DNA from: Gemmatimonadales bacterium
GTDB taxonomy: Bacteria; Gemmatimonadota; Gemmatimonadetes; Gemmatimonadales; GWC2-71-9
Length of the DNA: 64,000 nt
Reading direction: 5' to 3'
NCBI GenBank assembly: GCA_036397755.1
Contig: DASWII010000035.1
Coordinates: 43,049-107,048, forward strand
In this document: piece by piece, positions 4,439 through 59,318 of the stretch
How the letters are laid out: the number at the start of each line of letters is the position of its first letter
Numbering within the stretch: position 1 is the first letter of the stretch
Notes under the pieces: model-generated
What the model saw: only the letters and a program-made list of their open reading frames with translations
What the model was told of the DNA's origin: nothing
Database searches by the model: none
Made by a program: the position numbers and the translations under genes

Positions 4439-4510
4439 CCGGCGCCCGCGCCTATCGACCCCGCCACCGGCCGTCGTATACTTGAGGCACCCTCCTTGGG
4501 AGCCTCGGTG

Positions 4511-5089
4511 ATGCGACTGCTTACGTTGATCTGCACAGCCTCCATCGCCGCCACGGCGGCGGCGGCACAGGACACCCCACCGGCCGTACCGTTGGCCATC
4601 GGCGCTGTGGCACCCGACTTTGCGTTGCCCGGCGCCACGCGCTATGGCGTGCTCGGGGAACCGGTTCGCCTGAGTGACTACGCAGGGAAGACGGTGGTCC
4701 TGGCGTTCTTCTTTAGAGCAAGGACGCGTGGCTGAACGATCCAAATGCATGCGTACCGTGATCAGTACGCACAGCTGTTCCACAACGGCCGCAACGTCGT
4801 ACTCATCGCCATCAGCGCCGATTCGGTGGACGCCCTCGCGTCGTGGGCTCGCGACGACGAGTTCCCGTTCGTCATGGCCAGTGACCTCGGCGCGCTCGTC
4901 GGCCAGCAGTACGGTGCGCTCGCGAGTCGGCCCGGTCTTACCAACCGGAACCTCTTTGTGGTGGGACCGGACGGAAAGATCGCGTGGCGCGCCATTCCCT
5001 TTCGCGAGATCGATCCGACGGCCTACGAGGAACTCGGCGAGGCGCTGGATCGCATCGCGGCGCCCGTGGAGGACGGCGGCGGGCAGTAG
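4511..5089 (+). CDS. secreted peroxiredoxin (AhpC/TSA/Bcp-like) with an in-frame UGA at the peroxidatic position; candidate selenoprotein
   Basis: ORFs 4496..4735 and 4745..5089 share a frame and are separated only by TGA 4733-4735. The joined read VVLAFFFRARTRG-U-TIQMHAYRDQYAQLF matches the Prx T-x-x-C motif. Signal peptide MRLLTLICTASIAATAAAAQ. GGGAG lies 8 nt before ATG 4511. Confidence 0.7.
4750..4771 (+). promoter_or_regulatory. candidate bacterial SECIS-like hairpin
   Basis: UGCGUAC-CGUGAUCA-GUACGCA: 7 bp stem, 8 nt loop with G at loop position 2. The stem starts 14 nt after the UGA. Confidence 0.45.
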
Positions 5090-5189: not shown

Positions 5190-6290
5190 ATGGCAGAGCA
5201 GGATTTCGACGGTCTGCGTGAGCGCATTCGCCAACTCGATCTGGAACTGCTGGCGCGGGTGGCGGAGCGTGTGCAGCTGGCGAGGCAGGTGGGCGAGCTC
5301 AAGCGCCGACAGAACCTCTCGACAGTGGACTTCGCTCAGGAAAGGGTGGTGTTGGAGCGCGCCCGCGCCATCGCGCAGGAACGCGGCCTCGATCCGCAGG
5401 TGGCCGAAGATCTTTTCGCCGGGCTCATCCGTGCCTCGGTGACGGCTCAGGACGACGACAGGATACGCCTCGCGGCCGTGGGCGCGGGCAAGAACGCGGT
5501 CATCGTCGGTGGCGCCGGTCGGATGGGCCGATGGCTGGGCCGGTTCCTATCGGCCCAAGGGTACACCACGGGTGCTCTCGACCCGGGCTCGGCGCCCGAG
5601 GAAAGCGATTGGGCTCGCCGTTCGTTGCCGTCGGCGGACCTCATCGTGTGCTCCACGCCGCCGGCCGCCACCGCCGAGCTGTATGCGGAGTGGTCCGCGA
5701 CACCGCCGGTGGGAGTGGTGGTCGATATCGCCAGCATCAAGACGCCCCTCATCGAGCCGATCCGCGCACTTCAGCGCGCCGGCGGCCGCGTCGCCTCGAT
5801 CCACCCGATGTTCGGGCCGTCCGCTGTCTTGTTGCGCGATGCCGACGTGGTGATCTGCGACACCGGCGACTCTGAAGCCACCTCGACGGTGGAGAAGCTT
5901 TTCGAGCCGACCACCGTCAATGTCGTGCACATGCCGCTTTCCGACCACGACCGGATCATGGCCGACCTCCTGAGCGTGGCACACGCCACCGCGATCGCCT
6001 TTGCGCTCGCCCTGCCAAGGACCGACCACCCCGTTCGCAGCACCACCTTCCGGGCTCTGGAGTTGCTCGCCGCCGCGGCCGTGCGCGAGAGCCCGGACGT
6101 CTACTACGAGATTCAGGCCATGAACCCACATTCGGCGGTGGCACTCGAGCGGCTGCGCGCCGCGCTGGATCGGATCGTCGCCGCAGTCACGGCGCGGGAT
6201 TCGCGAGCGTTTCGCGCTCTGCTTGACGAGGGACGGAGTCGCACGCCGGAGGCGACGGGGGAGAGACGCGGTCTCAACGCCGGTGATTAA
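5190..6290 (+). CDS. tyrA: bifunctional chorismate mutase / prephenate dehydrogenase
   Basis: N-terminal CM_2-like helix region (LRERIRQLDLELLARVAERVQLARQVGELKR), followed by a Rossmann motif VIVGGAGRMGRW and a prephenate dehydrogenase body. Confidence 0.85.
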   Translation: MAEQDFDGLRERIRQLDLELLARVAERVQLARQVGELKRRQNLSTVDFAQERVVLERARAIAQERGLDPQVAEDLFAGLIRASVTAQDDDRIRLAAVGAGKNAVIVGGAGRMGRWLGRFLSAQGYTTGALDPGSAPEESDWARRSLPSADLIVCSTPPAATAELYAEWSATPPVGVVVDIASIKTPLIEPIRALQRAGGRVASIHPMFGPSAVLLRDADVVICDTGDSEATSTVEKLFEPTTVNVVHMPLSDHDRIMADLLSVAHATAIAFALALPRTDHPVRSTTFRALELLAAAAVRESPDVYYEIQAMNPHSAVALERLRAALDRIVAAVTARDSRAFRALLDEGRSRTPEATGERRGLNAGD

Positions 6291-6373: not shown

Positions 6374-6880
6374 CTACCGCCTGTTGACCACCACCGCCTC
6401 GAGTGCCCCCGCAAAGTCCTGATCGCTCCCCGCGCCGGTATATACGACAGTGCCGCTGGAATCGAGAATCACGACGTACGACGTCGTCGGAGCCATGAAG
6501 GCGCGGGTCGCCCGGCCCCGCGTATCCCACAAGACCATGAACGGCAGTGCCTCACTTTCCAGATGGCGCCGGATCGTCCGTTGCGACTGGTTCACGGCCA
6601 CGGCGACCGCGATGAACGTCACGCGGTCTCCATACTCCGCGTGCATCGCCTTCATGTACGGAAACAGACGGGTGCAATCGGGACACCAGGTTGCCCAAAA
6701 CTGCAGCAGCACGGGCGTCTTGCCGACGACTTGCCCGAGATCGAACGGCTCGCCGTCGAGGTCCTCGATCACGACTCCCGCGGCCACCGTGCCGCGCGCC
6801 AAACCAATTTGATCCTGGGCGGCGAGCGGTGTCCCGGCGACGATACTCGCGGCGGCAACGCCAAGGGTGAGATGTCTCAT
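6374..6880 (-). CDS. TlpA/ResA-like periplasmic thioredoxin (thiol:disulfide oxidoreductase)
   Basis: C-terminal 168 aa of track ORF 6374..7618, starting at MRHLTLGVAAAS (ATG 6880). Has a signal peptide and a WCPDC active site. Confidence 0.85.
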   Translation of the reverse strand: MRHLTLGVAAASIVAGTPLAAQDQIGLARGTVAAGVVIEDLDGEPFDLGQVVGKTPVLLQFWATWCPDCTRLFPYMKAMHAEYGDRVTFIAVAVAVNQSQRTIRRHLESEALPFMVLWDTRGRATRAFMAPTTSYVVILDSSGTVVYTGAGSDQDFAGALEAVVVNRR

Positions 6881-6888
6881 ACGCACGA

Positions 6889-7611
6889 TTATCCCCAATA
6901 GGACAGTCCGGCCAGCCAGAGGTAATACCCCGCCATACCAAGCATGATCGCACCGGCGCCGCGTGTCACCCATACCATCCAGCGACCCGACCGCGGCAGC
7001 AACACCAGCGTGCCGGAGAAGACTCCCACGACCGCCAGCACCGCCGTCATGCCGAGGGAGAACACGAAGAGGTAGGCGAAACCGAGGACGCCGCTGCCCG
7101 TCGTGGTCACCCACGTCAGCACGGCCGCAAACGCCGGCGCACCGCAGGGAGCAGCCACGATCCCCGAGGTGGCGCCCAAGGTGAATACCGCCGGGTAACT
7201 CCCGCCCGGCAGTGATCCGGCCCAGCTGACGACGCGAGCGGGTAGGGCCACCGCGAACACCCCGAACATACTGAGCGCAAACAGAATAAGCAGCGCGGCA
7301 ATGGCCACCCGAGCAAGCGGGTGCGACGCCACCGAGCCGAAGAGCGACCCCGAGAGCCCGGCCACCAAGCCCACGCTCGCGTACAGCAACGCGAGCCCCG
7401 CGACGTACGTGGCGGTGAGCCCGAGGCGGCGGCGGAATGACGCCCCTGCTCCCTCGGCGCCGGCGATGACGCTCGCCGTGATGGGAATCATGGGATAGAT
7501 GCAAGGCGTCAAGCTCGTGAGCAGCCCAGCGCCGAACAGCGTCACCAGGGCGATTGGTGGGCTGTCGGTCAAGGCTTCGGTCAGTCCCTGCAAAACGAGG
7601 AGCGTCACCAT
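6889..7611 (-). CDS. ccdA: cytochrome c biogenesis / thiol-reductant transporter CcdA (DsbD-family core)
   Basis: 240 aa polytopic membrane protein with the two conserved Cys motifs TPCIYPMIP and APCGAP. It ends 8 nt upstream of the thioredoxin gene. Confidence 0.85.
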   Translation of the reverse strand: MVTLLVLQGLTEALTDSPPIALVTLFGAGLLTSLTPCIYPMIPITASVIAGAEGAGASFRRRLGLTATYVAGLALLYASVGLVAGLSGSLFGSVASHPLARVAIAALLILFALSMFGVFAVALPARVVSWAGSLPGGSYPAVFTLGATSGIVAAPCGAPAFAAVLTWVTTTGSGVLGFAYLFVFSLGMTAVLAVVGVFSGTLVLLPRSGRWMVWVTRGAGAIMLGMAGYYLWLAGLSYWG

Positions 7612-39120: not shown

Positions 39121-41574
39121 TCAACCGACCACGAGACTGACCAGGCGGTCCTGCACGTACACGACCTTGCGCACGGGCTTGCCGCCCACGAATCGCCGCA
39201 CGCGTTCGTCCGCCGAGGCCAGTCGCACGGCATCGTCTTCCGCGAGGCCTGCCGGGGCAACCACTCGCCCCCGGACCTTGCCATTGACTTGCACGACCAA
39301 CTCCACCGTGTCTTCCCTCGAGAGCTCCGGGTCGGACGTCGGCCAGGACTGCCCGAACACCGAGGCTCCACCGCCCAGACACTCCCAGCACTCTTCGGCA
39401 AAGTGCGGAGCAAACGGCGACAGCATGATCACCAGCGGCCGGAGCAGGTCCGTGGCGACGACGCGATCCCCGGCCTCGTCCTCCCCCCGTCCCCGCAAGA
39501 CGTTGACGTACTCCATGAGCTTCGAGATCGCCGTGTTGTAGCGCAGCGCTTCGCAATCCTCGGCGACGCCGGCGATGGTCTGGTGGAGCTTCCGCACGGC
39601 GGCGTCGGGCACCTCTCCGCCGCCGCCGGCGGTCACCGCACGCACGATCAGATCCCAGACGCGATCCAGGAATCGTCGCAGCCCAGCGATCCCCTCGTCG
39701 CGGAAGTCACCGCCCTCTTGATACGGACCCAGGAACATCAGGTACATCCGAAACGTGTCCGCTCCCCACTTCGTGATGTACTCGTCCGGAATGACCACGT
39801 TGCCCCGAGACTTGGACATCTTCGCGCCATCCTTCACGATCATGCCGTGCGCTCGGAAGCGGACGAACGGTTCCTCGAACGACAGATGGCCAAGGTCGTG
39901 CAGCGCCATGGTGATGAACCGCGCATACATGAGATGCAACACCGCGTGCTCGTTTCCTCCGATGTACGAGTTCACGGGGAGCCACCGCGCCGTGAGATCC
40001 TGGTCGAAGGGACGATCGTCGAACGCGGTGGATGGATAGCGCAGGAAGTACCAGGCAGAGTCCAAAAACGTATCCGAAACATCCGTCTCACGGCGCGCGA
40101 GCTTGCCGCACGTTGGACACGCCACGCGGTACCACTCCTCGTTGCGGGCGAGCGGTGAGACGCCGCTCTCGTCGGGGCGAAAGTCCTCCAGCGGGGGCAG
40201 AATCACGGGCAAGTCACGGTCCGGGACGGGCACGGTACCGCACCGTTCGCAGTAGATGATCGGAATCGGTGGTCCCCAGTACCGCTGGCGCGAGATGCAC
40301 CAGTCATGCAGGCGATACTGCACCGTCGCGGAACCCGCACCTCGCGCCGCAAGCCAACTCGTGATCGCCCGCGCGGCCGCCCGGCACTCCATCGCGTCAA
40401 AGGCACCACTGTTGGTGAGCACGCCGTCCCACCCCGTGAACGGCCGCTCGGCATCCGGGGCGTTGGGCACCACGACCTCCCTGATCTCCAGGCCGTACCG
40501 CGTGGCAAACTCGTGATCGCGCGCATCGTGCGCCGGCACGGCCATGATGGCGCCCGTCCCGTACTCCATGAGCACGTAGTCGGCAATCCAGATCGGAATC
40601 GATTCATTGGTCGCCGGGTTCCGCGCATAGGAGCCTGTGAACACACCGCTCTTTTCGCGCTCGCCGACGCGGCGCGCGACGATATCTTTGGTCGCCGCCT
40701 CTCTGCGATAGTCGCGTACCGCACTGCGCTGCTCGGACGTCGTGAACCGATCCACGAGCGGGTGCTCGGGCGCAAGCACCATGTAGGTCGCGCCGAATAC
40801 CGTGTCCGGCCGCGTGGTAAAGACGCGAATCTCATGTTCCCCTGGTGTCGTGAACACCAACTCCGCACCATCCGAGCGCCCGATCCAGTTCCGCTGCATC
40901 GTGCGGGTCGATTCCGACCAGTCGATCGCGGCGAGGTTGTCCAGGAGCCGCTGTGCGAACCGCGTGATGCGGAAGAACCATTGCTCGAGGAAGCGCTGGT
41001 GGACCTGCGTATCGGGATGGCGTTCGCAGAATCCGTCGATCACCTGCTCGTTCGCGAGCACCGTCTTGCATTCCGGGCACCAGTTCACCGGCGCTTTCTG
41101 CTTCACCGCCAGGCCGGCTTCGTACAGCCGGAGGAAGATCCACTGCGTCCAATGGTAGTACCGTGGATCGGTGGTGCGGACCTCATGGGTCCAATCGAGC
41201 ATCAGCCCGATGCGCCGAAGCTGCTCGCGGAACCGCTGAATGTTGGCCGGAATCAGGTCCGCCGGGTGCGTGTTGACCTTCAGCGCATAATTCTCCGAGT
41301 GGATACCGAAGGCATCGAACCCTATCGGCTCGAAGACATCCCACCCCTGGAGCCGCCGGAATCTGCCGTGCACGTCGGCGCCGATGAACGCGAACACATT
41401 TCCGACGTGCAGCCCTTCGGCCGAAGGGTAGGGGAACATCATGAGGTTGTAGTACGGCCGCACGGAGCCGGCGAGGTCCACGAGGTTCGTGCCGTACTGC
41501 TCCCACAGCGCCTGCCACTTGGCTTCGGTCGCCGTGGGATCGTAGCGATCTGGCATCGGAGGGTGCTCGGTCAT
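39121..41574 (-). CDS. leuS: leucine--tRNA ligase
   Basis: 817 aa. PYPSAEGLHVGN (HIGH region), KMSKSRGN (KMSKS) and a CP1 editing-domain region. Confidence 0.95.
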   Translation of the reverse strand: MTEHPPMPDRYDPTATEAKWQALWEQYGTNLVDLAGSVRPYYNLMMFPYPSAEGLHVGNVFAFIGADVHGRFRRLQGWDVFEPIGFDAFGIHSENYALKVNTHPADLIPANIQRFREQLRRIGLMLDWTHEVRTTDPRYYHWTQWIFLRLYEAGLAVKQKAPVNWCPECKTVLANEQVIDGFCERHPDTQVHQRFLEQWFFRITRFAQRLLDNLAAIDWSESTRTMQRNWIGRSDGAELVFTTPGEHEIRVFTTRPDTVFGATYMVLAPEHPLVDRFTTSEQRSAVRDYRREAATKDIVARRVGEREKSGVFTGSYARNPATNESIPIWIADYVLMEYGTGAIMAVPAHDARDHEFATRYGLEIREVVVPNAPDAERPFTGWDGVLTNSGAFDAMECRAAARAITSWLAARGAGSATVQYRLHDWCISRQRYWGPPIPIIYCERCGTVPVPDRDLPVILPPLEDFRPDESGVSPLARNEEWYRVACPTCGKLARRETDVSDTFLDSAWYFLRYPSTAFDDRPFDQDLTARWLPVNSYIGGNEHAVLHLMYARFITMALHDLGHLSFEEPFVRFRAHGMIVKDGAKMSKSRGNVVIPDEYITKWGADTFRMYLMFLGPYQEGGDFRDEGIAGLRRFLDRVWDLIVRAVTAGGGGEVPDAAVRKLHQTIAGVAEDCEALRYNTAISKLMEYVNVLRGRGEDEAGDRVVATDLLRPLVIMLSPFAPHFAEECWECLGGGASVFGQSWPTSDPELSREDTVELVVQVNGKVRGRVVAPAGLAEDDAVRLASADERVRRFVGGKPVRKVVYVQDRLVSLVVG

Positions 41575-41622
41575 CGTGCCCCTAATCTAGCCACACACGC
41601 TGAACACTCTCGTCCTCTGGGC

Positions 41623-43245
41623 TCACGCGGTGCGCGCGTTGCCCGGAAGGCGTTGTCCCGACAGATCCGCGATTCTGACCTCCAGGACGTCCGAGAGCTG
41701 CGCGAGTTCCGTCAGCACTGCCGGCGCCGGCACATTGTCCACCACGATCGCGGCCAGGACATCCACAGCTTCGTGGTTGCGGCGGGACTGATGATAGGAC
41801 GCGATGTTGATATCAGCCCCGCCCAGAATCGTGCCCACGCGACCGATCACACCCGGGACGTCACGGTTCCGAATGACCAACACGTGTCCCTCCACCGGTA
41901 TGTCGACGATGAAGTCGTCCACGCGAATCACTCTTCCGAGCCGATCGCCGATGAATGCCCCGACGACCGTCGTGCGCCGGTCCGTGGTCTCGACCGTCAC
42001 CCCCACAGTGGTTTCGAATCCGGCAACGGGATTGCCCACGCGGCGTGAGACGGCCATGCCGCGCTCCGCCGCCAGCGCCGCCACGTTCACCAGACTGACT
42101 GGACCGACCCCGATGGCCGTCAGCACTCCTTCCACCGCTGCCAGCATGACCGGCTTCGGGGCCTCGTCGTCCGCCCCGCCATACGCCACTTCCACCGCCT
42201 GCGTGCGACCGTGCGCGATGCTGGCAGCGAGGCAACCCACCCGCCGTGCCAGTTCGAGGACTCCCGCCAGACGCCCCAAAACCTTCCCACTCACGCCGGG
42301 CAGGTTGACGGCTCCGGCAATCGATCCGGACAAGAGCGCATCCCGAACCGCCTGGCAGATCTCGCGCGCAACGCGGTCCTGCGCCTCCGTGGTCGAGCCC
42401 GCCAGATGGGGGGTGAGAATCACGCCCTCCAGGGTGCGGAGCCGGGAATCCGCCGGGAGCGGTTCGGGATCGAACACATCGAGTGCCGCGCCGGCCAGGG
42501 CGCCCGAGGCAACCGCGTCAGCCAGGGCGTCGTCGTCGATCAACCCGCCCCGCGCCGTGTTGACGACCACCGCGGTGGGACGCAGTAGCCTCAGACGTCG
42601 TGCGTCGAGCAGGTGCTTCGTTTCCTCGTTGAGCGGGAGATGAAGCGACACGACGTCCGCCCGCGGCAGCAAGTCGTCGATGGACAGGAGTTCCGCACCG
42701 AGTGAGCGCGCGCGGGGCTCCGGCAAGTACGGGTCGTGCGCCAGGATTTCCATGCCGAACGCCCGGGCGATCTGCGCGACGTGTTGGCCGATCCGGCCCA
42801 GTCCGACGATCCCGATCGTCTTCCCCCGCAATTCGCGGCCCGGAAACGCTTTGCGATCCCATTTTCCCTCGCGCATGCTGTTGACCGCCCATGGGATCTT
42901 GCGTTGGAGCGAGAGCAAAAGGGCGAAGGCATGCTCCGCCGCGCTGACCGTGTTGGCCCCGGGAGCGTTGAGCACGACGATCCCCCGGCGTGTCGCCGCA
43001 TGCACATCAACGTTGTCGACACCGGTCCCGGCGCGCGCGATCACATGCAGATCATGCGCGGCCGCCATCATGGCGTCCGTGACCGTCGTCTCCGATCGCA
43101 CGATGAGCGCGTGCGCCCGTGCGAGGGCCGCCGGCAGTTCCGCGGGAGCCCCCGCGGTGGAGACCAAGTCGAAAGACGGTTCGGCCCGGAGGATGTGATA
43201 CCCGCTCTCGGCGATGCGGTCCGCCACCACAACCACGTACTTCAC
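41623..43245 (-). CDS. serA: D-3-phosphoglycerate dehydrogenase (long form with ACT domain)
   Basis: GTG 43245 overlaps the upstream stop (GTGA). GIVGLGRIGQHVA NAD motif and a C-terminal ACT-like region. Confidence 0.9.
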   Translation of the reverse strand: MKYVVVVADRIAESGYHILRAEPSFDLVSTAGAPAELPAALARAHALIVRSETTVTDAMMAAAHDLHVIARAGTGVDNVDVHAATRRGIVVLNAPGANTVSAAEHAFALLLSLQRKIPWAVNSMREGKWDRKAFPGRELRGKTIGIVGLGRIGQHVAQIARAFGMEILAHDPYLPEPRARSLGAELLSIDDLLPRADVVSLHLPLNEETKHLLDARRLRLLRPTAVVVNTARGGLIDDDALADAVASGALAGAALDVFDPEPLPADSRLRTLEGVILTPHLAGSTTEAQDRVAREICQAVRDALLSGSIAGAVNLPGVSGKVLGRLAGVLELARRVGCLAASIAHGRTQAVEVAYGGADDEAPKPVMLAAVEGVLTAIGVGPVSLVNVAALAAERGMAVSRRVGNPVAGFETTVGVTVETTDRRTTVVGAFIGDRLGRVIRVDDFIVDIPVEGHVLVIRNRDVPGVIGRVGTILGGADINIASYHQSRRNHEAVDVLAAIVVDNVPAPAVLTELAQLSDVLEVRIADLSGQRLPGNARTA

Positions 43246-44330
43246 GCCATCACCTCCTCGACAACGCCGAGCAACGCTTGCAGTCGTTCCGGGGAATGAT
43301 CGCCCATGTGACCAATCCGGAACGTCGTCGTTTTGAGCTTGCCGTATCCCGTGCCGACGATCCACCCCTTATCACGGATCGCGTAGGCACAATCGCGCGC
43401 GTTGCGTCCTGCGGGAACGGTGAGACATGACACCGTCCAGGATCGGCGGCCTTCCGCTGGCAGCAACCCTACCCCCAACTCCGCCCCGCGGTTCTGCGTC
43501 CAAGCTTCCACCATCTCGCGCATGCGCTGGTGTCGCTCCCACCGTGCCGTGACTCCGCCCGTCTCTTCAATGCGCTGCATCTGCGCGTCCAGTGCGTACA
43601 GCAATGAAAGCGCCGGTGTGTTCGTCGGCTGGTAGTCGGCCGCGGCCTGATCGAACGCCAGCACGTCGAGATACGCCCCCCGCTCGGGGACGGTCTTGGC
43701 GCGTTCGATCATCCGTTCCGACGCCACGCCCACCGAGAGACCCGGAGGCAGGGCCAGGGCCTTCTGACTCCCCGTGAAGACGAAATCCAGTTTCAAGGCG
43801 TCCGTTTCGACCGGCGAGCCGCCAAGCGAGGTGACGGCGTCCACGAGCAAGAGCACGTCGTCACGCTCGTGCACCACCTGCGCTAGCTGCTCCAGGGGCG
43901 CCAACGCGCCCGTCGACGTCTCGGAGTGTACCAGCGTCACCGCGTCCACCTCCGTCCGTCGCAGGGCGTCGCGTAGCATGTCCGGCTCCACCGTGCGCCC
44001 GTAGGGGACCTCGAGGCGCATGACTTCCCGGCCTGTCGCGGCCACGATGGCGGCAAACCGCTCGCCGAACGCCCCGCCGACCAGTGAAAGCGCACGCTGA
44101 CGCACACCCGAACGGACCGCCATCTCCATGAACCCCGTTGCCGCACAGGTGCCGACGAGCACTCGCCGTTTGGTGCGGCAGAGACGTTGCAGGGGGCCTT
44201 CGAGCCGCCGCATGAGGTCGACCATTTCCCGACCGCGGTGCGCGATCATCGGCCGCGTCATCGCGGCCAGTACATCGGGATGGACTTCCGTGGGGCCCGG
44301 GAGGAAGAACTGTCCGAACTCCGGCGTCAT
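43242..44330 (-). CDS. class V aminotransferase (phosphoserine / serine-glyoxylate aminotransferase-like)
   Basis: FLPGPTEVHPDVLAAM N-terminus and the FTGSQKAL PLP-Lys motif. Sits directly upstream of serA. Confidence 0.8.
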   Translation of the reverse strand: MTPEFGQFFLPGPTEVHPDVLAAMTRPMIAHRGREMVDLMRRLEGPLQRLCRTKRRVLVGTCAATGFMEMAVRSGVRQRALSLVGGAFGERFAAIVAATGREVMRLEVPYGRTVEPDMLRDALRRTEVDAVTLVHSETSTGALAPLEQLAQVVHERDDVLLLVDAVTSLGGSPVETDALKLDFVFTGSQKALALPPGLSVGVASERMIERAKTVPERGAYLDVLAFDQAAADYQPTNTPALSLLYALDAQMQRIEETGGVTARWERHQRMREMVEAWTQNRGAELGVGLLPAEGRRSWTVSCLTVPAGRNARDCAYAIRDKGWIVGTGYGKLKTTTFRIGHMGDHSPERLQALLGVVEEVMA

Positions 44331-56550: not shown

Positions 56551-59049
56551 CTACAGCGTCATCTCCCGTTGGTCACGCCCCTCCGCCACAACCTCGGCGT
56601 CGGTTCCTTCCACCGTGTCATCACTGATGACGCGCGCAACGTCAACGAGCGTATCGCCGGAGTCGAGATTCATGACCCTCACACCCTGAGTGTTGCGTCC
56701 GATCACGCGTATGCCGGACGCGGGGACCCGGATGATGACACCGTGGCGGGTAACCATCATCAATTCGTCGTCCTGGAGAACTTCCTTGAGCGCGACCACC
56801 GCACCCGTCTTCTCGCTCTGCCGGACCGTGATAATGCCCTTCCCGCCCCGCCGCTGCACGCGATAGTCCGCAATGGAGGAGCGCTTCCCCAAACCTTTCT
56901 CCGTGACGACGAGCAACGTCGCGTCTCGGCGGATGACCACCATGCCGATCACCCGATCGGCCGTGGCAAGCTGGATACCACGTACCCCGGACGTCGCGCG
57001 TCCCATTTCGCGCGCGTCCTTTTCGCTGAACCGGATGCTCATGCCGTTACGAGTGGCCAGTACGATGTCGTTGGTACCGTCCGTCACCTGCACGTCGATC
57101 AACTCGTCACCGTCATCCACGTTGATGGCATTGATACCCGAGGAGCGTGGGTTCCCGTACGCCGAGAGAACCGTCTTCTTTACCATGCCCTTGGCGGTCG
57201 CGAACATCAGATACTGGGTGTCGCCGAACTCCCGCACGGAGACGAACGCAGCTATGCGCTGCTCCCCGCTGATCTGAATCAGATTAACGATCGGCCTACC
57301 CCGAGCCGCGCGACCACCCTGCGGGATGTCATACACTTTCAACCAATAGACCTGACCACGGTCGGTGAAGAACAGCACGTACTCGTGGGTCGATGCGATG
57401 AAGAGATGCTCGACCCAGTCGTCGTCGCGTGTTCCCATGCCGTTGAGCCCGCGCCCACCTCGTCGTTGGCGCCGGTAGGTGGTCACCGGTATGCGCTTGA
57501 TGTATCCCGCATGCGAGATCGTGACCACCATATCCTCTTCGGCGATCAGATCCTCGACGGAGAAGTCGCCCTCATCGGCGACGATTTCGCTCCGCCGCCG
57601 ATCCCCAAAACGCCCGGCAAGCTCCGCTAGCTCGTCCGTGAGCACCCGCATCCGCTTCGGGCGAGAGCCCAGGAGCGCCTTCAACGACGTGATGAGTGTA
57701 CGGACCTCGCCAAGCTCTTCTTCCAGTTTGCCGATCTCCAGAGACGTGAGCCGGGCGAGGCGCATGTTGAGGATCGCTTCGCTCTGCTTTTCGGACAGAT
57801 CGAACCGCGCACGAAGCGCGGCATCTGCGTCCGGAACGTCTTTCGCCTTCCGGATGATCCGCACAACCTCGTCGATGTTGTCGACGGCGATCTTGAGACC
57901 CTCGAGAATGTGCTCGCGGGCCAACGACTGATCCAGCTCGTATTGCGTCCGGCGGGTGATGACGTCGTGACGATGCTCGATGAAATGCTCGAGCAGCTCC
58001 TTGAGCGACATCACACGCGGCTGACCGTTCGCCAGCGCCAGCATGATGGCACCGAACGTGGTCTGCATCTGGGTCCGTTTGTACAGCTGATTGAGGACGA
58101 CCGTGGGATTCGCGTCTCGCTTCAGTTCGATCACGATCCGCATCCCGTCGCGATCCGACTCGTCGCGCATGTCGGAGATGTCCGTGATCTTCTTTTCGTG
58201 CACGAGACCAGCGATCTGCTCGATCAGGCGCGACTTATTGACTTGGAATGGAATCTCCGTGACCACGATCTGTTCCCTGCCCGACGATTCCCTTTCCTCG
58301 ACCTGCGCCCGCGCCCGCATCACGATCCGCCCCCGGCCGGTTTCGTAGCACTCCTTGAGGCCCTCGGTGCCGTAGATGAACCCGCCGGTCGGAAAGTCAG
58401 GACCGGTGATATGCTGGCGGAGATCATCCACGCTGCAATCCGGATGCTCCACCAGGTGTTTTACCGCCGCGGCGACTTCGCCGAGATTGTGTGGGGGAAT
58501 GTTCGTTGCCATGCCGACCGCGATGCCCGACGATCCGTTGACCAGGAGATTGGGGAGCTTGCCGGGCAGAACCGTGGGCTCTTCCAGCCGATCGTCGAAG
58601 TTCGGAGTGAACTCCACGGTGCCCTTGTCGATGTCCTCCAACATCGTGACCGCGAGCGCCGTGAGCCGCGCCTCGGTGTATCGATAGGCCGCCGCGCTGT
58701 CGCCATCGACCGACCCGAAGTTCCCCTGTCCGTCCACCAGCGGGTACCGCAACGAGAATGTCTGGACCATGCGCACCAGAGAGTCGTAGACCGCGGTGTC
58801 CCCATGTGGGTGGTACTTGCCCAGCACGTCGCCCACCACGGTCGCACTCTTCTTGTACGGTCGACCCGGCTGAAGCCCGAGCTCGTTCATCGCATAGAGA
58901 ATGCGACGGTGGACCGGCTTGAGACCGTCTCGCACGTCGGGCAGTGCGCGCTGCACGATCACGCTCATTGAATAGTCGATGAACGACTCGCGCATTTCGT
59001 CTTCGATGAGCCTGGGGAGGATTCGCTCCCGCTGATTCGGTGCCGACAT
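56551..59049 (-). CDS. gyrA: DNA gyrase subunit A
   Basis: Start at ATG 59049 ([49 protein letters not shown]). Active-site [10 protein letters not shown] and C-terminal beta-pinwheel repeats. Confidence 0.95.
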
Positions 59050-59061
59050 GGTGCTCCCTGG

Positions 59062-59091
59062 AAAACGAAAAATGGGGTCGGATTCGACCCC
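59062..59091 (-). terminator. intrinsic-terminator-like hairpin + U-tract inside the gyrA leader
   Basis: Minus-strand GGGGUCG-AAUC-CGACCCC followed by AUUUUUCGUUUU. It ends 12 nt before the gyrA ATG. Confidence 0.4.
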
Positions 59092-59106
59092 GTCGGAGGT
59101 CCCTGT

Positions 59107-59135
59107 AATATACCCCGATCGAAGACGCCAATCAA
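59107..59135 (-). promoter_or_regulatory. putative sigma-70 promoter of gyrA
   Basis: Minus-strand TTGATT - 17 nt - TATATT, about 58 nt upstream of the ATG. Confidence 0.35.
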
Positions 59136-59318
59136 CTCGGCGGAACATTCCTAACCGGTTGATTGGCAATCACTTAGAGTTGACCGCAGTCACCATGACC
59201 GCGGGTGGGTCCGCAGGAGGTCGTCGGTCGTTTTGCAACCATCCCGAATCCCGGAGCATCTAAGCCAGTGAGATGGTAACCGGGCTCCCGCAGGGGCCGC
59301 GCAAAGAGGTGACGTTCA

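Follow-up and report, generated by a model that had tools for sequence, protein, structure and literature searches.

We report a peroxiredoxin gene with an in-frame TGA at its catalytic position in a 64,000-nucleotide (nt) stretch of DNA, hereafter the window, from a Gemmatimonadales metagenome-assembled genome (contig DASWII010000035.1 of assembly GCA_036397755.1, positions 43,049–107,048 of the forward strand). Positions 4511–5089 of the window very probably encode one exported peroxiredoxin whose peroxidatic residue is selenocysteine (Sec). Our confidence is, if anything, slightly higher that the UGA is genuinely recoded in a functional peroxiredoxin. The comparative data strongly support a single functional gene under selection, with a UGA at the catalytic position and a selected hairpin downstream of it. 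An initial annotation of the window had proposed a Sec peroxiredoxin as a candidate. This reading is now supported by the recurrence of the TGA column in relatives, by purifying selection, and by hairpin codons that are frozen only in the forms with TGA (Sec forms) and not in those with Cys (Cys forms).

Two open reading frames (ORFs), 4496–4735 and 4745–5089, lie in one frame. They are separated by TGA 4733–4735 and the three sense codons ACG ATC CAA, followed by ATG 4745; re-reading of the sequence reproduces this arrangement and all of its coordinates as first described. The joined translation around the TGA is VVLAFFFRARTRG, the stop, and TIQMHAYRDQY, and a longer read gives GKTVVLAFFFRARTRG-[TGA]-TIQMHAYRDQYAQLF. 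The gene span is corrected in one respect. The start codon is ATG 4511, which the Joint Genome Institute (JGI) caller assigns to the N-terminal fragment, and not TTG 4496. As the initial annotation had anticipated, standard callers miss the gene. Both NCBI and JGI split the window copy into genes of 74 and 114 amino acids, and the C-terminal fragment is 100% identical to the NCBI entry 'redoxin domain-containing protein [Gemmatimonadales bacterium]'. Of 40 long ORFs in the window, 19 end in TGA, which makes it the most frequent ordinary stop; therefore, the codon is not reassigned genome-wide. The Trp that databases show at the catalytic column of two homologs is a TGA read through by the caller: the JGI calls for L084:749–751 (P0003) and L170 (P0116) translate it as Trp, giving a full-length 'peroxiredoxin' with W at the catalytic position.

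The joined protein is a peroxiredoxin by profile, alignment, and fold. The Pfam family AhpC-TSA (PF00578) matches residues 30–159 continuously through the TGA (99.7 bits, gathering cut-off 26, E = 1.4e-28), covering positions 1–123 of the 124 in the profile. The nearest structures by sequence are the archaeal BCP-type peroxiredoxins 2ywn/4g2e and 2cx3 and the 1-Cys AhpE of Mycobacterium tuberculosis. In the alignments with 2ywn and 2cx3, the catalytic residues T72-R-G-U75 fall on T-x-x-C, the peroxidatic Cys of F-Y-P-A-A-F-T-Q-V-C-T stands on the TGA, and the conserved Arg stands on R146. The Cys column of the orthologs agrees, placing the TGA exactly on the peroxidatic Cys of the T-x-x-C motif, as had been seen by eye, and the conserved downstream Arg expected from the same reading is present in N-R-N (4946–4948). 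Among 151 family members, Arg occupies the R146 column in at least 97%. We model the Sec-form ortholog P0003, with W standing at the Sec position. The AlphaFold model has a predicted local distance difference test score (pLDDT) of 90.5 and a predicted template modelling score (pTM) of 0.84, and the Sec position (residue 68 of P0003) lies in the first turn of helix 66–77. The top matches of this model among PDB structures in Foldseek are all peroxiredoxins (BCP, Bcp4, Bcp1, and AhpE), with target TM-scores of 0.80–0.84. Scores against the NCBIfam models of PrxU (NF040737; 59.5 bits, cut-off 270) and of Bcp, the thioredoxin-dependent thiol peroxidase (NF006960; 57.6 bits, cut-off 140), are below threshold. 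Therefore, the protein is no equivalog of any named family. Its assignment to the BCP/PrxQ or the AhpE subfamily is ambiguous.

Annotation by NCBI and JGI corresponds to two separate genes, a 74-residue secreted N-terminal fragment and a 114-residue C-terminal redoxin-like protein starting at ATG 4745, three codons past the TGA. However, the Met encoded at 4745 is part of a conserved T-I-Q-M that is present in all Cys forms too, so that it does not serve as a dedicated start. A complete peroxiredoxin fold is present in neither half (the initial annotation had said so of the thioredoxin fold): the Pfam match, the PDB alignments, and the P0003 model all span the junction. In addition, the C-terminal piece would have neither the catalytic residue nor a signal peptide. 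Two separate genes are therefore very unlikely.

At the catalytic column, 36 distinct sequences, which come from at least 15 species, have the TGA. Among the 16 closest loci, each from the genome of a different Gemmatimonadota species, the DNA reads TGA in 15 and TGC in one, and every close metagenome relative recovered has TGA. Carriers of the TGA form include CP070716.1, CAWETG01, CAWDZR01, and CAWCUS01, assemblies that are complete or nearly so; JALYSW01 (L014) is a relative with the Cys form only. Cys aligns to the same column in 112 distinct Cys-form domains, and it stands in F-F-P-R-A-R-T-x-G-C-T-I-Q-M in 104 of 120 protein homologs. The TGA is thus the counterpart of a Cys codon in the orthologs, and the isolated, decaying nonsense mutation that would have spoken against recoding is not what the relatives show, since they share the TGA and neither half has decayed. 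One homolog has Leu at the Sec column (P0005; L083:332–334). Its codon, TTA, differs from TGA by one substitution; the contig is 864 bp long with 1.6x coverage, and the hairpin is otherwise intact. A second database homolog with Leu at the column, P0021, is a protein record only. In the TGA forms, an open frame of at least 67 codons precedes the TGA and one of 109–135 codons follows it, except in the 5'-truncated contig L099. The pairwise ratio of nonsynonymous to synonymous substitution rates (dN/dS) is 0.21 for the upstream half and 0.34 for the downstream half, and the median dS is about 1. The same TGA and the same hairpin sequence occur in contigs from independent JGI and ENA samples (L079–L082). 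In combination, the open halves, the dN/dS values, and the recurrent TGA lead us to exclude that the gene is a pseudogene, that the TGA is an error of assembly, and that the halves are independent genes. A midpoint-rooted neighbour-joining tree gathers the Sec forms to one side, where about ten Cys forms are mixed in among them; the tree is too weak to count conversions.

A pseudogene would be a peroxiredoxin inactivated by a TGC-to-TGA nonsense mutation. Such a mutation is a single substitution, the pipelines do call two fragments, and the TTA of L083 would be likewise inactivating. However, the same TGA is shared by relatives across species, no further stops or frameshifts are found in either half, both halves are under purifying selection, and the downstream synonymous sites are frozen only in TGA forms. 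The median dS excludes the possibility that the TGA forms are one recent clone, and the TTA comes from a short contig of low coverage. The pseudogene reading is thus effectively refuted by the shared TGA, the purifying selection, and the dS, and we assign it a very low probability. An error of sequencing or assembly, with TGC or TGT as the true codon, would require a single-base difference in a metagenome-assembled genome. This is exceedingly improbable and is refuted by independent assemblies: L079–L082 share both the TGA and the hairpin, and dozens of divergent relatives have the TGA.

The UGA is followed by a hairpin that has the geometry of a bacterial Sec insertion sequence (bSECIS). In the published bSECIS model, the loop is 3–9 nt, the stem is 4–16 bp, the spacing is 16–37 nt, and the minimum free energy is at most −7.5 kcal/mol; a G sits at the first or second position of the loop and is usually followed by G or U (PMC13188914). 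In the window, arms UGCGUAC (4750–4756) and GUACGCA (4765–4771) form a stem of 7 bp that starts 14 nt after the UGA. The 8-nt loop begins C-G-U and is spaced 21 nt from the UGA, and the folding energy is −8.6 to −9.2 kcal/mol, all within the published ranges.

Comparison of the Sec forms indicates that this hairpin is selected. The six hairpin codons at +6 to +11 (GCG TAC CGT GAT CAG TAC) are identical in all 35 distinct Sec forms that were aligned, and the core GCGUACCGUGAUCAGUACGC is unchanged in them. In particular, the Arg codon is CGT in 35/35 Sec forms versus 0/6 Cys-form genes, where CGT makes up 11% of Arg codons in the genome, and the Asp codon is GAT in all 35 Sec forms versus 2/6 Cys-form genes, where GAT makes up 30% of Asp codons. 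CGC, the commonest Arg choice in Cys forms, is absent from Sec forms at the loop Arg codon. Thr, Arg, and Gly codons flanking the hairpin each take four different forms in the same Sec sequences. L170 (P0116), found later, has the sole variant loop among Sec forms, CGGGAUCA, in which CGG stands for CGT and gives G-G, a combination allowed by the loop rule. Outside the hairpin, the Gln codon at +3 after the UGA (4742–4744) is CAA in 34/35 Sec forms versus CAG in 6/6 Cys forms (CAA genome usage, 21%). RNAalifold predicts the hairpin 4750–4771 and no other across the Sec forms, all of which fold it at −8.0 to −11.8 kcal/mol. Its closing pair varies in a compensatory way: 22 sequences have C-G, 3 have U-A, the window among them, 2 have G-C, and 6 have no pair there. 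Examination of the relatives thus bears out the hairpin on three counts: it is the only one predicted, its closing pair covaries, and its synonymous sites are frozen only in TGA forms. We regard this comparative pattern, a TGA column together with a hairpin invariant beyond chance, as decisive, and it strongly supports a selected hairpin.

The features of the locus are listed in Table 1. A second Cys at a conserved position of the mature domain is found in 0 of 151 family members; 150 have no second Cys in that domain, and the remaining one, a Cys form, carries an additional Cys at −1. Therefore, the protein would act as a peroxiredoxin of the 1-Sec (1-Cys) type, with an external thiol resolving its selenenic acid. 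By inspection, all Sec- and Cys-form relatives share a hydrophobic N-terminus that ends in A-x-A followed by Q. The signal peptide of the initial annotation is backed by this conservation and stands here as a prediction made by inspection.

Table 1 Features of the candidate Sec peroxiredoxin gene and its neighbours in the window
Feature	Position	Strand	Description and basis
Shine-Dalgarno-like GGGAG	4499–4503	+	7 nt 5' of start codon; read from sequence, putative function
Complete selenoprotein gene (candidate), AhpC/TSA superfamily peroxiredoxin	4511–5089	+	192 codons, M1...U75...Q192; TAG stop 5087–5089
Predicted Sec-type signal peptide	4511–4567	+	MRLLTLICTASIAATAAAA/QD, 19 residues; by inspection
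Active-site motif F-R-A-R-T-R-G-U	4712–4735	+	Counterpart of P-x-x-x-T-x-x-C; alignment to BCP structures 2ywn and 2cx3
UGA selenocysteine codon (candidate)	4733–4735	+	Residue 75, peroxidatic position; TGA in 36 distinct relatives, TGC in Cys forms
Bacterial SECIS hairpin (predicted)	4750–4771	+	7-bp stem 4750–4756/4765–4771; 8-nt loop CGUGAUCA 4757–4764
Conserved catalytic Arg, R146	4946–4948	+	+71 from Sec, motif N-R-N-L-F-V-V; aligned with peroxiredoxin Arg in 2ywn and 2cx3
TlpA-like exported thioredoxin	6374–6880	-	168 residues, W-C-P-D-C; Pfam and tblastn; putative direct reductant
CcdA, DsbD_TM family, membrane electron transporter	6889–7611	-	240 residues; Pfam PF02683; putative feeder of TlpA-like protein

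In most Sec loci with enough flanking sequence and in the Cys locus L169, tblastn finds the TlpA-like ortholog convergent with and adjacent to the peroxiredoxin gene. The ccdA gene adjoins the TlpA-like gene in the Sec loci and also lies next to the Cys form L166. The neighbourhood of peroxiredoxin, TlpA-like, and CcdA genes is kept in most related loci, in Sec and Cys forms alike. These neighbours suggest a periplasmic reductive pathway similar to that of PprX in Caulobacter. Contig L079 (1–10000) extends upstream of the window and overlaps its start. It carries msrA (PMSR), genes for a CopD-family protein and a response regulator, and a gene for a large BNR/sortilin-repeat protein; no selenium-related gene is found among these upstream genes. 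Elsewhere in the window, leuS (39124–41586, −), a serA-like phosphoglycerate dehydrogenase gene (41626–43368, −), and gyrA (56554–59169, −) mark ordinary chromosomal DNA. Many long antisense ORFs in the window are artefacts of its 65.5% GC.

Several observations weigh against an exported Sec peroxiredoxin. The first concerns the active site. The Pro of P-x-x-x-T-x-x-C has been called absolutely conserved (PMC3322552), and known Sec peroxiredoxins retain it as P-x-x-x-T-x-x-U. In the window protein, it is replaced by Phe68 (4712–4714, −7 from Sec). Phe occupies this position in 33/35 Sec forms, versus Pro in 112/113 Cys forms. Pro is retained in L015 and L105, the two Sec forms that diverge most, and L170 has Tyr. 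The second concerns the neighbourhood, as both the proposed export and the proposed link to TlpA and CcdA are drawn from inspection and gene neighbourhood, and a tyrA-like gene parts the peroxiredoxin gene from the TlpA-like gene in the window. This gene, a chorismate mutase/prephenate dehydrogenase fusion at 5190–6290 (+), has tblastn matches only in L079–L082, and it has the appearance of an insertion, restricted to the window lineage, within a cluster that is conserved elsewhere.

The third concerns the hairpin. A qualifying downstream hairpin stands behind 9.4% of in-frame codons in window genes, and a 68-nt fold of the single sequence is no better than shuffles (z = −0.81). Therefore, the hairpin in one sequence alone is weak evidence and is not significant. 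Accordingly, the initial annotation was right about the geometry of the SECIS, to which conservation and the covarying closing pair are now added, and it gave too much weight to a hairpin in one sequence. In addition, six of the seven stem pairs never vary and thus offer no evidence of covariation. The Cys form L165:301–906 (P0001) folds the same stem at −14.3 kcal/mol, with a loop, CGCGAUCA, that has no G-U. The codons of A-Y...Q-Y-A are self-complementary, and the stem is partly a by-product of the peptide and of preferred codons. These data suggest that the Sec-specific signal is the loop (CGU and GAU) together with the CAA at +3, and that the stem was pre-existing and eased the switch from Cys to Sec.

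The fourth concerns the Sec machinery. ARAGORN returns no tRNA for the window or for 20 loci. Rfam yields nothing at gathering thresholds in the window and two chance-level antisense matches near the UGA. Pfam finds no SelA, SelB, or SelD domain in 20 large window ORFs, which are housekeeping genes only, and tblastn with E. coli SelD, SelA, and SelB as probes gives no match in the window or in 169 loci. Hence selA, selB, selD, and tRNA-Sec are not seen in the window or the 169 loci, which are a small part of each genome, so this negative result says little. A screen of the window for further genes with an in-frame TGA, based on GC content at third codon positions, returns antisense artefacts only and leaves the peroxiredoxin gene itself unflagged. 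In the literature searched, we find no Sec use in Gemmatimonadota and nothing specific on an exported Sec peroxiredoxin.

These negatives bear on another explanation, in which the UGA is read through with a residue other than Sec. The residue could be Cys, delivered by a SelB-like factor and a tRNASec-like tRNA-Cys, or it could be Trp or Cys inserted by a near-cognate tRNA under stimulation by the hairpin. SelB-dependent systems for Cys insertion are described in some bacteria. Consistent with this explanation, no Sec machinery is seen in the window and loci, and the comparative data show selection for the UGA and the hairpin, not the identity of the inserted residue. However, the loop has the G followed by G or U of a SelB-binding bSECIS at the canonical spacing. 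Insertion of Cys through a UGA and a hairpin would bring no evident benefit, as TGC is one substitution away and is used by relatives. An enzyme with Trp or some other residue in place of the peroxidatic one would be inactive, yet purifying selection acts on the entire active site. With no Sec machinery seen in the window and loci and the searched literature silent on Sec use in Gemmatimonadota, we leave a small probability to a residue other than Sec and consider it unlikely.

Selenocysteine at the UGA would lead to the following mechanism. The hairpin 4750–4771 would present its G-U loop 21 nt after UGA 4733–4735. The conservation of the loop is consistent with recruitment of SelB·GTP·Sec-tRNASec, by which Sec would be inserted instead of termination. 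The N-terminal signal peptide would direct the pre-protein to export. Thr72 and Arg146 would activate the selenolate in the periplasm, where it would reduce peroxides and become selenenic acid. The 1-Sec peroxiredoxin would probably be recycled by the neighbouring TlpA-like thioredoxin, and the latter may draw electrons from cytoplasmic thioredoxin through CcdA, as suggested by the gene neighbourhood and by the ScsB–TlpA–PprX precedent in Caulobacter. A Cys form was probably the ancestor of the Sec form, and in it A-Y-R-D-Q-Y-A would already have encoded the stem at the right distance from the TGC; the synonymous U's of the loop would be the only part specific to Sec forms. We lean slightly towards the full proposal, namely that Gemmatimonadota keep Sec decoding for a periplasmic 1-Sec peroxiredoxin with an F-x-x-x-T-x-x-U motif, that it is recycled by CcdA and the TlpA-like protein, and that its SECIS derives from the A-Y-R-D-Q-Y-A stem of a Cys ancestor.

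Bacterial Sec peroxiredoxins are an established family. Its biochemical prototype is the PrxU protein from Eubacterium acidaminophilum (Sohling et al. 2001). In 2006, 12 members and 5 independent Cys-to-Sec events were listed in a survey (PMC1794560), a 2016 survey lists 91 proteins in 78 organisms (PMC5029168), and the family is also surveyed in PMC13188914. Like the known members (PF00578, T-x-x-U), the window gene would have an AhpC/TSA fold, a UGA-encoded Sec in place of the peroxidatic Cys, and a bSECIS inside the ORF. It also has close Cys homologs, fitting the repeated Cys-to-Sec conversions reported for the family. Unlike PrxU and the other known Sec peroxiredoxins, the window protein has a predicted signal peptide, no resolving Cys, and Phe for Pro, and its score against the PrxU profile is far below the cut-off. 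In addition, the gene is annotated as fragments and lies in Gemmatimonadota, a phylum unlinked to Sec use in the literature searched.

Among Cys enzymes, a close parallel is PprX of Caulobacter crescentus (Cho et al. 2012, PMC3322552). PprX is a BCP/PrxQ-like peroxiredoxin with an N-terminal signal sequence; the window protein has a predicted one and falls between BCP/PrxQ and AhpE. In Caulobacter, a TlpA-type thioredoxin and a transporter of the DsbD superfamily form the reducing chain; in the window, genes for a TlpA-like protein and CcdA lie nearby and may serve likewise, as their neighbourhood suggests. However, PprX has a Cys in P-x-x-x-T-x-x-C and a resolving Cys, whereas the window protein would have Sec, with Phe for Pro and no resolving Cys. 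The transporter also differs, being a minimal CcdA in the window and ScsB in Caulobacter (PMC3322552). The best matches by sequence and by fold are BCP/PrxQ and AhpE proteins (2ywn/4g2e, 2cx3, 3hjp, 3drn, and 1xxu; E-values down to 1.4e-12, 23–32% identity, TM-scores 0.80–0.84). As in M. tuberculosis AhpE (1xxu), the window protein is of the 1-Cys type, without a resolving Cys. Unlike the window protein as proposed, these matches are cytoplasmic Cys enzymes.

The predicted SECIS resembles the E. coli fdhF/fdnG type and the consensus of Zhang and Gladyshev (2005), to the extent that this consensus is relayed in PMC13188914, in being a stem-loop inside the ORF after the UGA, in the G-U early in the loop, in spacing, and in energy. 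It differs from the E. coli fdhF/fdnG type in that it has no primary-sequence similarity, no Rfam match, and no evident bulged U. Also unlike that type, its stem is a perfect palindrome made from Ala-Tyr and Tyr-Ala codons.

Sec peroxiredoxins, bSECIS hairpins, and envelope peroxiredoxin pathways are all established, and the variant features therefore amount to no new kind of system. The window gene is a new, mis-annotated member of the established Sec peroxiredoxin family. Its variant features are the predicted export, the probable 1-Sec mechanism, the Phe in place of Pro, the linkage to TlpA-like and CcdA genes, and the unreported phylum.

The finding corrects a systematic annotation error, as the gene is recorded in dozens of Gemmatimonadota genomes and metagenomes either in two pieces or with an active-site Trp. 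It implies Sec use in a widespread soil phylum, unreported in the literature searched, for an enzyme facing the oxidising cell envelope. A Sec enzyme in Gemmatimonadota is at odds with the widely shared view that selenoproteins are seldom kept in aerobes. The Sec and Cys orthologs form a natural pair that differs in the catalytic residue, in a Pro that is invariant elsewhere, and at a small number of synonymous sites. The pair could show what a peroxiredoxin gains from Sec and how a SECIS originates from coding sequence. If the proposal is true, the largely aerobic Gemmatimonadota would have a selenium-dependent pathway for peroxide reduction in the cell envelope, the first in bacteria.

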